Shown in pieces: positions 35,805 to 35,987 of a DNA stretch of 64,000 nt. Position 1 is the first letter of the stretch, and the number at the start of each line of letters is the position of its first letter. The notes beneath the pieces are model-generated. The model was not told the origin of the DNA, did no database searches, and was given only the letters and a program-made list of their open reading frames with translations. Source of the DNA: Escherichia coli (GTDB lineage: Bacteria; Pseudomonadota; Gammaproteobacteria; Enterobacterales; Enterobacteriaceae); assembly GCF_003790525.1 (NCBI RefSeq), contig NZ_CP033635.1. One strand, written 5' to 3'. A program made the translations under genes and the position numbers.

Positions 35805-35987
35805 TCATGGCAGATGTTTATTCCCATCTAAAATGGCATCAACGGGAAAGTAAGTAATGTGTTTATTGTTATTCTTCTCATTTATTTTATCGCCATGGTT
35901 ATTTTTTAAATCAACTGTGCCTTCCTCATGATATTTCCTGGCTAACTCTTCAGACGTAAAAGAAGCGTTTTTTCCGTTTATGTTCAT
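35805..35987 (-). CDS. small hypothetical protein (60 aa) between chaperone and translocator genes
   Basis: tightly packed in the operon (10 bp after the eicA stop, 55 bp before eipB); no recognised homolog. Confidence 0.3.
   Translation of the reverse strand: MNINGKNASFTSEELARKYHEEGTVDLKNNHGDKINEKNNNKHITYFPVDAILDGNKHLP

Follow-up and report, generated by a model that had tools for sequence, protein, structure and literature searches.

A 60-codon open reading frame between eicA and eipB in the Escherichia coli eip locus: evidence for and against a small gene of the translocator operon

In the eip locus of Escherichia coli, an open reading frame (ORF) of 60 codons lies between eicA, the gene of a T3SS (type III secretion system) translocator chaperone, and the translocator gene eipB, and the question raised by this locus is whether the ORF is a gene. 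The DNA analyzed, referred to here as the window, is a stretch of 64,000 nucleotides of contig NZ_CP033635.1 (assembly GCF_003790525.1), and the ORF occupies positions 35805..35987 on its minus strand, as 60 codons and a TGA stop. Its sequence is MNINGKNASFTSEELARKYHEEGTVDLKNNHGDKINEKNNNKHITYFPVDAILDGNKHLP (60 aa, ATG start). An earlier reading of the same DNA, the original prediction, had placed the ORF correctly and had proposed either a small secreted or regulatory protein or simply a spurious ORF in an AT-rich spacer. The answer reached here is that, with a probability of roughly 50%, it is a genuine small gene of the eicA-eipBCD operon, orphan, evolving fast and dispensable, and at best a young one. 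A small gene, present now or until recently, is suggested by its length, its codon usage, its apparently constrained C-terminus and the recurrence in sister loci of ORFs that are coupled to the chaperone stop. The neutral evolution of codons 2-45, the frameshifts, the orphan status and the weak Shine-Dalgarno sequence suggest that in E. coli it is at present of little or no consequence.

Intrinsic coding signals were determined on the spacer, which is indeed AT-rich (33% GC). A sense ORF of at least 60 codons appeared in 1.2% of 3000 dinucleotide shuffles of the 250-nt spacer (p = 0.012), indicating that the small ORF is longer than chance readily gives. Codon usage was evaluated with a log-likelihood score, trained by contrasting eip codons read in frame with those read out of frame and leaving out stop codons. 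The small ORF scored 0.171 per codon, in-frame windows gave 0.202 ± 0.089, and no out-of-frame window was as high. The score also exceeded that of 99.6% of stop-free shuffles (p = 0.004). A simply spurious ORF fits poorly with this length and this coding-like codon usage.

Selection was studied with 17 annotated genome loci, 58 metagenome loci and a few contigs with divergent alleles. The metagenome loci were anchored on the eipB start, so that sampling was independent of the state of the small ORF, and 40 unique haplotypes underlie the counts of segregating sites. In 33 of these 40 haplotypes, the ATG and the ORF length are unchanged. The sole part with signs of constraint is codons 46-60 (35808..35852, minus strand; YFPVDAILDGNKHLP), where 6 segregating sites were found in 45 nt, distributed 2:1:3 over the three codon positions, with 4 synonymous and 2 non-synonymous changes, the latter both singletons. 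The synonymous bias gave a binomial p of 0.028. Compared with codons 2-45, the synonymous contrast gave p = 0.038 by Fisher's test, and site density was lower (p = 0.012). As references, the last 219 nt of eicA showed 33 segregating sites (7:8:18; 20 synonymous and 15 non-synonymous changes) and the first 600 nt of eipB showed 85 (17:17:51; 55 and 35).

The gap between the small ORF and eipB (35750..35804, minus strand, 55 nt) runs from the end of the small-ORF stop codon at 35805 to the eipB ATG at 35749 and contains, at about 35755-35762, the strong Shine-Dalgarno sequence of eipB, AAGGAGGT. With that region set aside, the remaining 39 nt hold 8 segregating sites, a near-neutral level. A conserved non-coding block formed by the 3' part of the ORF and the gap had been suggested by the first 11 genomes and the first metagenome set, and it was dropped as the main explanation. 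Since the gap varies at 8 of 39 nt once divergent alleles are added while codons 46-60 vary little, the data argue against such a simple block.

Support for a small gene also comes from sister loci. Escherichia albertii carries an orthologous island at selC, the site which the eip genes adjoin in E. coli, with identities to E. coli of 73% for EicA, 27% for EipB, 27% for EipC and 43% for EipD. Its eicA-eipB spacer of 263 nt is filled by a 70-codon ORF (6519-6731 of locus L012; BAT37120.1 and others, hypothetical protein) whose GTG start overlaps the eicA stop (GTGA) and which is preceded by a Shine-Dalgarno sequence of -8.8 kcal/mol. All 12 protein variants are 70 aa long, codon usage is coding-like (p = 0.017), and the length is exceptional among shuffles (p about 0.014-0.02). 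The protein contains PELIKP, identical to the chaperone-binding motif of YopD (PELIKP, PxLxxP) tabulated in PMC4068993. The general form of this motif for class II T3SS chaperones, [P/V]xLxxP, is defined in the same paper and was not found, reading by eye, in the 60-aa sequence or its alleles. The E. coli and E. albertii ORFs are alike in position, size, N-terminus (MNINGK and MNSINK, respectively) and coding-like codons, but the overlapping GTG, the good Shine-Dalgarno sequence and PELIKP belong to E. albertii only. When a fusion of E. albertii EicA, a linker and the ORF was modelled with AlphaFold2, the ORF part had a predicted local distance difference test (pLDDT) score of 25-51 without confident docking, in what is a weak test. 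A population test in E. albertii yielded 4 segregating sites in the ORF, a diversity too low to be informative.

A third case is found in the Ysa-type loci of Yersinia. One lineage of Y. enterocolitica has an intact ORF of 92-94 aa (PNM27311.1) between the sycB-like and yspB-like genes; its start overlaps the chaperone stop (ATGA), and its Shine-Dalgarno sequence is GGAGG, at -11.0 kcal/mol. Related copies are decayed: the one on a Y. frederiksenii plasmid is 42% identical and frameshifted, in a 321-nt gap; locus L097 has a decayed copy; and L025 has a 121-nt gap with a 24-codon remnant. The ORF coordinates are 2998-3282 in L099, about 2454-2760 in L100, 3001-3284 in L097 and 3498-3575 in L025. 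Like the E. coli ORF, the Yersinia ORF follows a class II chaperone gene, precedes a SipB-family gene, starts with Met-Asn, is uncharacterised and is often decayed. In contrast, it has the stop overlap and a strong Shine-Dalgarno sequence, whereas the E. coli start lies 9 nt downstream with a weak one; neither E. albertii nor Yersinia has the 9-nt spacer, the ORF start overlapping the chaperone stop in both.

Several other translocator operons lack such a spacer. The SPI-1 (Salmonella pathogenicity island 1) operon sicA-sipBCDA and the Shigella operon ipgC-ipaBCDA are homologous to eip, with a chaperone gene followed by SipB-, SipC- and SipD-type genes, but in related operons of this kind the two genes directly adjoin or share bases (-8 to +5 nt): 5 nt separate ipgC from ipaB in Shigella, 2 nt separate sicA from sctE in Providencia, and 8 nt are shared in a Salmonella plasmid T3SS. 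The corresponding gaps measure 34 and 46 nt in another two loci, which come from sequencing-run assemblies. The T3SS nomenclature table lists no gene between chaperone and translocator (PMC7232297). The statement in the original prediction that SPI-1 and Shigella operons have no gene at this place was borne out for Shigella and extended to Providencia and the Salmonella plasmid T3SS, chromosomal SPI-1 lying outside the comparison. The small ORF was not found to be a conserved SPI-1/Mxi-Spa component, with no family and no gap space in Shigella, Providencia or the Salmonella plasmid. This comparison of gaps indicates that both the spacer of about 250 nt and the small ORF within it are peculiar to loci of the eip and Ysa types. 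The position after the chaperone gene in these operons is not listed in the literature and is mildly new.

Despite these indications, other results weigh against a conserved function, and the first of them concerns selection on the main part of the ORF. Codons 2-45 (35853..35984, minus strand) encode a hydrophilic, N/K/E-rich sequence and evolve neutrally. Their 132 nt contain 43 segregating sites distributed 19:11:13, without third-position excess, and 12 synonymous versus 42 non-synonymous changes, that is, 22% synonymous for a random expectation of 23%. Site density was 0.33, no lower than at third codon positions of neighbouring genes. The test for purifying selection, which looked for an excess of synonymous changes and of third-position sites, failed for codons 2-45 and for the whole ORF. 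In the first 11 genomes, the ratio of non-synonymous to synonymous rates (dN/dS, Nei-Gojobori) was 1.64 for the small ORF and 0.06, 0.12 and 0.13 for eicA, the 5' part of eipB and eipD, respectively; in this analysis, the small ORF resembled the out-of-frame controls of eicA, eipB and eipD. In addition, the evidence for C-terminal constraint comprises six variable sites in total.

The second concerns frameshifts at a run of six adenines in codons 27-29 (A6; 35902..35907 on the minus strand, T6 on the plus strand), seen in alignments and as RefSeq 'frameshifted' flags. A5 and A7 alleles of this run truncate the product at 34 or 29 residues. Of 29 full-length matches sampled evenly from complete genomes, 9 carried one of them, as inferred from the length of the matched segments (600 or 602 nt versus 601), and reading one genome per length class confirmed the A5 or A7 run together with the RefSeq flag. 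In the flagged strains, eicA, eipB, eipC, eipD and eilA are intact. Among metagenome loci, the small ORF was disrupted at the A6 run in 22 of 55; disruptions of eicA were seen in 5 of 46 and of eipB in 5 of 48, and 14 loci have intact eicA and eipB yet a broken small ORF. Overall, 31-40% of E. coli loci are frameshifted. Since each frameshift lies on its own haplotype background, these alleles probably derive from few events that have risen to high frequency. One allele of 58 aa (P0005) appears to combine A5 with a 5-nt deletion restoring the C-terminal frame. As separate observations, some loci are rearranged immediately upstream of eipB or within eicA: two metagenome contigs (L046 and L070) have unrelated sequence where the small ORF would be, and in the complete genome NZ_CP169399.1 (L105), eicA is truncated by an IS2 element.

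The third concerns translation and structure. The Shine-Dalgarno match of the small ORF is the weakest of the six genes in the locus, with an anti-Shine-Dalgarno pairing energy of -4.8 kcal/mol; the other genes range from -6.3 to -12.9 kcal/mol, with eipB at -12.9. The only source of this Shine-Dalgarno-like sequence is the 3' end of eicA, whose stop codon TGA (35997-35999) is separated from the ATG by the 9-nt spacer GTCGGCAAA (35988..35996, minus strand). This distance is compatible with re-initiation. In an AlphaFold2 fusion of EicA, a linker and the ORF, EicA was modelled well, while the ORF part had a pLDDT of 28-37 and no confident fold. Docking of the ORF part onto EicA received no support in this fusion, which is a weak test of EicA binding since it is a single chain with a shallow alignment and no contact output.

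The fourth concerns orphan status. The small ORF is already present in RefSeq as a hypothetical protein (WP_001024523.1), and the calls of the Prokaryotic Genome Annotation Pipeline (PGAP) and the stored gene calls of the assembly collection are consistent with it. The eip locus is carried by 733 of 5426 complete E. coli genomes, and the ORF is annotated throughout among the genomes listed. Neither Pfam nor NCBIfam gave a family match for the protein. A word-indexed search of 5.8 billion proteins returned solely E. coli or metagenome variants, at 75-97% identity, and HMMER, run exhaustively against 1.84 billion cluster representatives, recovered nothing beyond its own cluster. With no homologue outside the E. 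coli eip locus in the exhaustive search, the small ORF is an orphan restricted to that locus. As an orphan small ORF within an operon gained by horizontal transfer, it is an ordinary kind of object. Scanning species-representative genomes with an EicA alignment returned two loci, since the derived peptide patterns were too specific. One of the two, a contig filed under a Collinsella metagenome-assembled genome (JAIJJM010000039.1, L018), carries the E. coli eip locus with an EicA 98% identical, and it is probably a binning contaminant.

Homology to the same-position ORFs was tried and rejected as well. BLASTP gave no alignment between the E. coli and E. albertii ORFs at E ≤ 100, and their local alignment was no better than shuffles (p = 0.85). 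A profile of the Yersinia ORF family scored -0.8 on the E. coli ORF by hmmsearch (shuffle p = 0.35) and 0.7 on the divergent allele L020 (p = 0.11), and the E. albertii ORF was not detected by it either. Likenesses seen by eye, namely the MN- starts and 'LI[GP]EL.K' in E. albertii and Yersinia, were not relied on. Since even EipB and EipC share only 27% identity between E. coli and E. albertii, undetected similarity of the ORFs is proof neither of orthology nor of its absence; between the two species, a protein of 60 aa that changed at the EipB/EipC rate would be undetectable.

The last of these adverse results is a third, highly divergent eip-like island, in two genomes labelled E. coli (GCA_009799345.1 and GCA_910664965.1; loci L016 and L017), whose 255-nt spacer has no ORF longer than 30 codons. 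The spacers of E. coli, E. albertii and this third variant are not alignable as DNA. Relative to the window, the third variant is 55% identical in EicA, 29% in EipB, 25% in EipC and 39% in EipD. An eilA-like regulator of its own accompanies it, and an invasin-type adhesin gene lies upstream.

Checks proposed with the original prediction gave divided results. About 60-70% of E. coli loci retain the frame and a same-position ORF exists in E. albertii, but that ORF shows no sequence relation, the third variant has none, and frameshifts affect 31-40% of E. coli loci. Selection at the codon level is absent over codons 2-45 and can be detected, weakly, over the last 15 codons, and a ribosome-binding-site match is present but is the weakest in the operon.

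Taking the ORF as a small gene, translation by re-initiation after eicA is proposed because its own Shine-Dalgarno match is weak: ribosomes would probably re-initiate 9 nt after eicA. The product would be a 60-residue hydrophilic protein, probably disordered, of which the last 15 residues alone appear constrained. In E. coli, the small ORF appears to fill a position behind the chaperone gene that holds 70 aa in E. albertii and 92-94 aa in Y. enterocolitica, whose occupants differ beyond recognition from genus to genus and are frequently lost. As a hypothesis, the product could act as an accessory protein of the T3SS, bind the chaperone or be secreted. Both alternatives of the original prediction are still allowed by the data, and nothing specific for secretion or regulation was found. 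A wider idea, that the post-chaperone position in eip and Ysa operons holds coupled, fast-evolving genes for small disordered products that bind the chaperone or are secreted, is rather doubtful. In related systems, chaperones co-activate transcription together with InvF- or MxiE-type regulators. If the wider idea were right, such products could adjust the amount of EicA or SycB free for co-activating transcription or for loading translocators.

The most serious alternative to a small gene, which we regard as not far behind it in probability, is that the ORF is non-functional, either a decayed relic or an accidentally open AT-rich frame called by gene finders for its openness. Three quarters of the ORF evolve neutrally, frameshifts are frequent where neighbour genes are intact, and the orphan status, the weak Shine-Dalgarno sequence and the predicted disorder are all as expected from it. 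The published eip locus has six genes, with tags EC042_4007-4012 in enteroaggregative E. coli (EAEC) 042. We read this curated numbering as one tag per named gene and none for the small ORF, which favours the non-functional explanation, and a literature search on the eip locus did not find the ORF. The decay of same-position ORFs in Y. frederiksenii (frameshift), L097 and L025 (24-aa remnant) points in the same direction. In this explanation, the conserved 3' end would reflect a role at the nucleotide level, such as an eipB leader or an antisense promoter, or an accident of sampling. A plus-strand promoter-like match at 35807-35834, the only one in the small ORF, indeed lies inside the conserved block, and its hexamers are invariant. 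However, it matches at 9 of 12 positions, and such matches are as frequent as in shuffled sequence (5 found versus 3.7 expected, no enrichment). An internal sense-strand promoter for eipB was also considered and rejected, since the spacer scan gave none. Length (p = 0.012) and codon usage (p = 0.004) speak against this explanation, and the changes in the last 15 codons are mostly synonymous next to a near-neutral gap. A relic, moreover, would still imply a real gene once.

Less probable, and in our view unlikely, is that translation matters but the peptide does not, with eicA-coupled ribosomes shielding the mRNA before eipB from Rho-dependent polarity or RNase. Selection would then keep the frame open without constraint on the amino acids. 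This would agree with the finding that, in E. coli, E. albertii and one Yersinia locus, a single ORF starting at or beside the chaperone stop nearly fills the spacer (247-323 nt), with the lack of such an ORF in systems without a spacer, and with neutral amino acids in a frame open in most alleles. Yet frameshifts that end translation at codon 29-34 are common where eipB is intact, no frame is open in the long spacers of L097 and of the third eip-like variant, and the Shine-Dalgarno sequence of eipB itself is very strong. The amino-acid conservation of the last 15 codons would also be left unexplained. Finally, a structured RNA leader, riboswitch-like element or small RNA controlling eipB is highly improbable: a long spacer before a gene with its own ribosome-binding site and a 7-8-bp hairpin that can be drawn in the conserved 3' part speak for it, but the minimum free energy of the spacer is no better than that of shuffles (z-score -0.76), Rfam gave no match at E ≤ 1, uncompensated changes disrupt the hairpin in the divergent allele L020, and the spacer is unalignable between E. 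coli, E. albertii and the third variant.

If the small ORF is translated, the eip locus would have seven genes, not six, and operons of the eip and Ysa types would possess an extra small product beside the chaperone that controls translocator stability. The A6 run provides a natural experiment, about a third of strains being natural knock-outs with an otherwise intact operon. If it is not functional, the locus is a warning, with an ORF annotated in more than 700 complete genomes that has gene-like length and codons and evolves neutrally.

Regarding the surrounding genes, the minus strand carries eicA, the small ORF, eipB, eipC, eipD and eilA, and the adhesin gene eaeX/air is on the opposite strand. 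The gene eicA (35997..36494, minus strand; annotated in RefSeq) encodes a class II T3SS translocator chaperone of the SycD/LcrH/SicA type of 165 aa, with a match to Pfam TPR_3 at E = 2.3e-17. The window was compared with E. coli SMS-3-5 (NC_010498.1). Identity was 100% over 35600-36200, and over about 14 kb the two differed by one single-nucleotide polymorphism and a 1-nt deletion in eipB, up to a breakpoint at about 40977. Past this point, on the selC side of the eip genes, the window and SMS-3-5 do not align; the SMS-3-5 flank contains phage-like genes (an Icd-like protein and a primase-helicase), which were not found in the window.

The gene eipB (33969..35749, minus strand) encodes a SipB/IpaB-type translocator and is a pseudogene in the window, where the A8 run of SMS-3-5 is A7 (1-nt deletion at about 35138) and the gene is split into ORFs of 205 and 378 aa. 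It is intact, at 593 aa, in SMS-3-5. Frameshifts of eipB independent of that in the window are also present in other strains, including the 5 of 48 metagenome loci. In addition, eipC (32805-33956) and the 3' half of eipB (about 33969-34850) show extreme diversity among E. coli strains (loci L001-L011). Nucleotide diversity was 0.21 in eipC and 0.08 in the whole of eipB, with the excess in its 3' half, compared with 0.02 in eicA and eipD. EipC falls into length classes of 383 and 376 aa, and the diversity of eipC and the eipB 3' half suggests either a deep split into two allele families or recombination with a different lineage.
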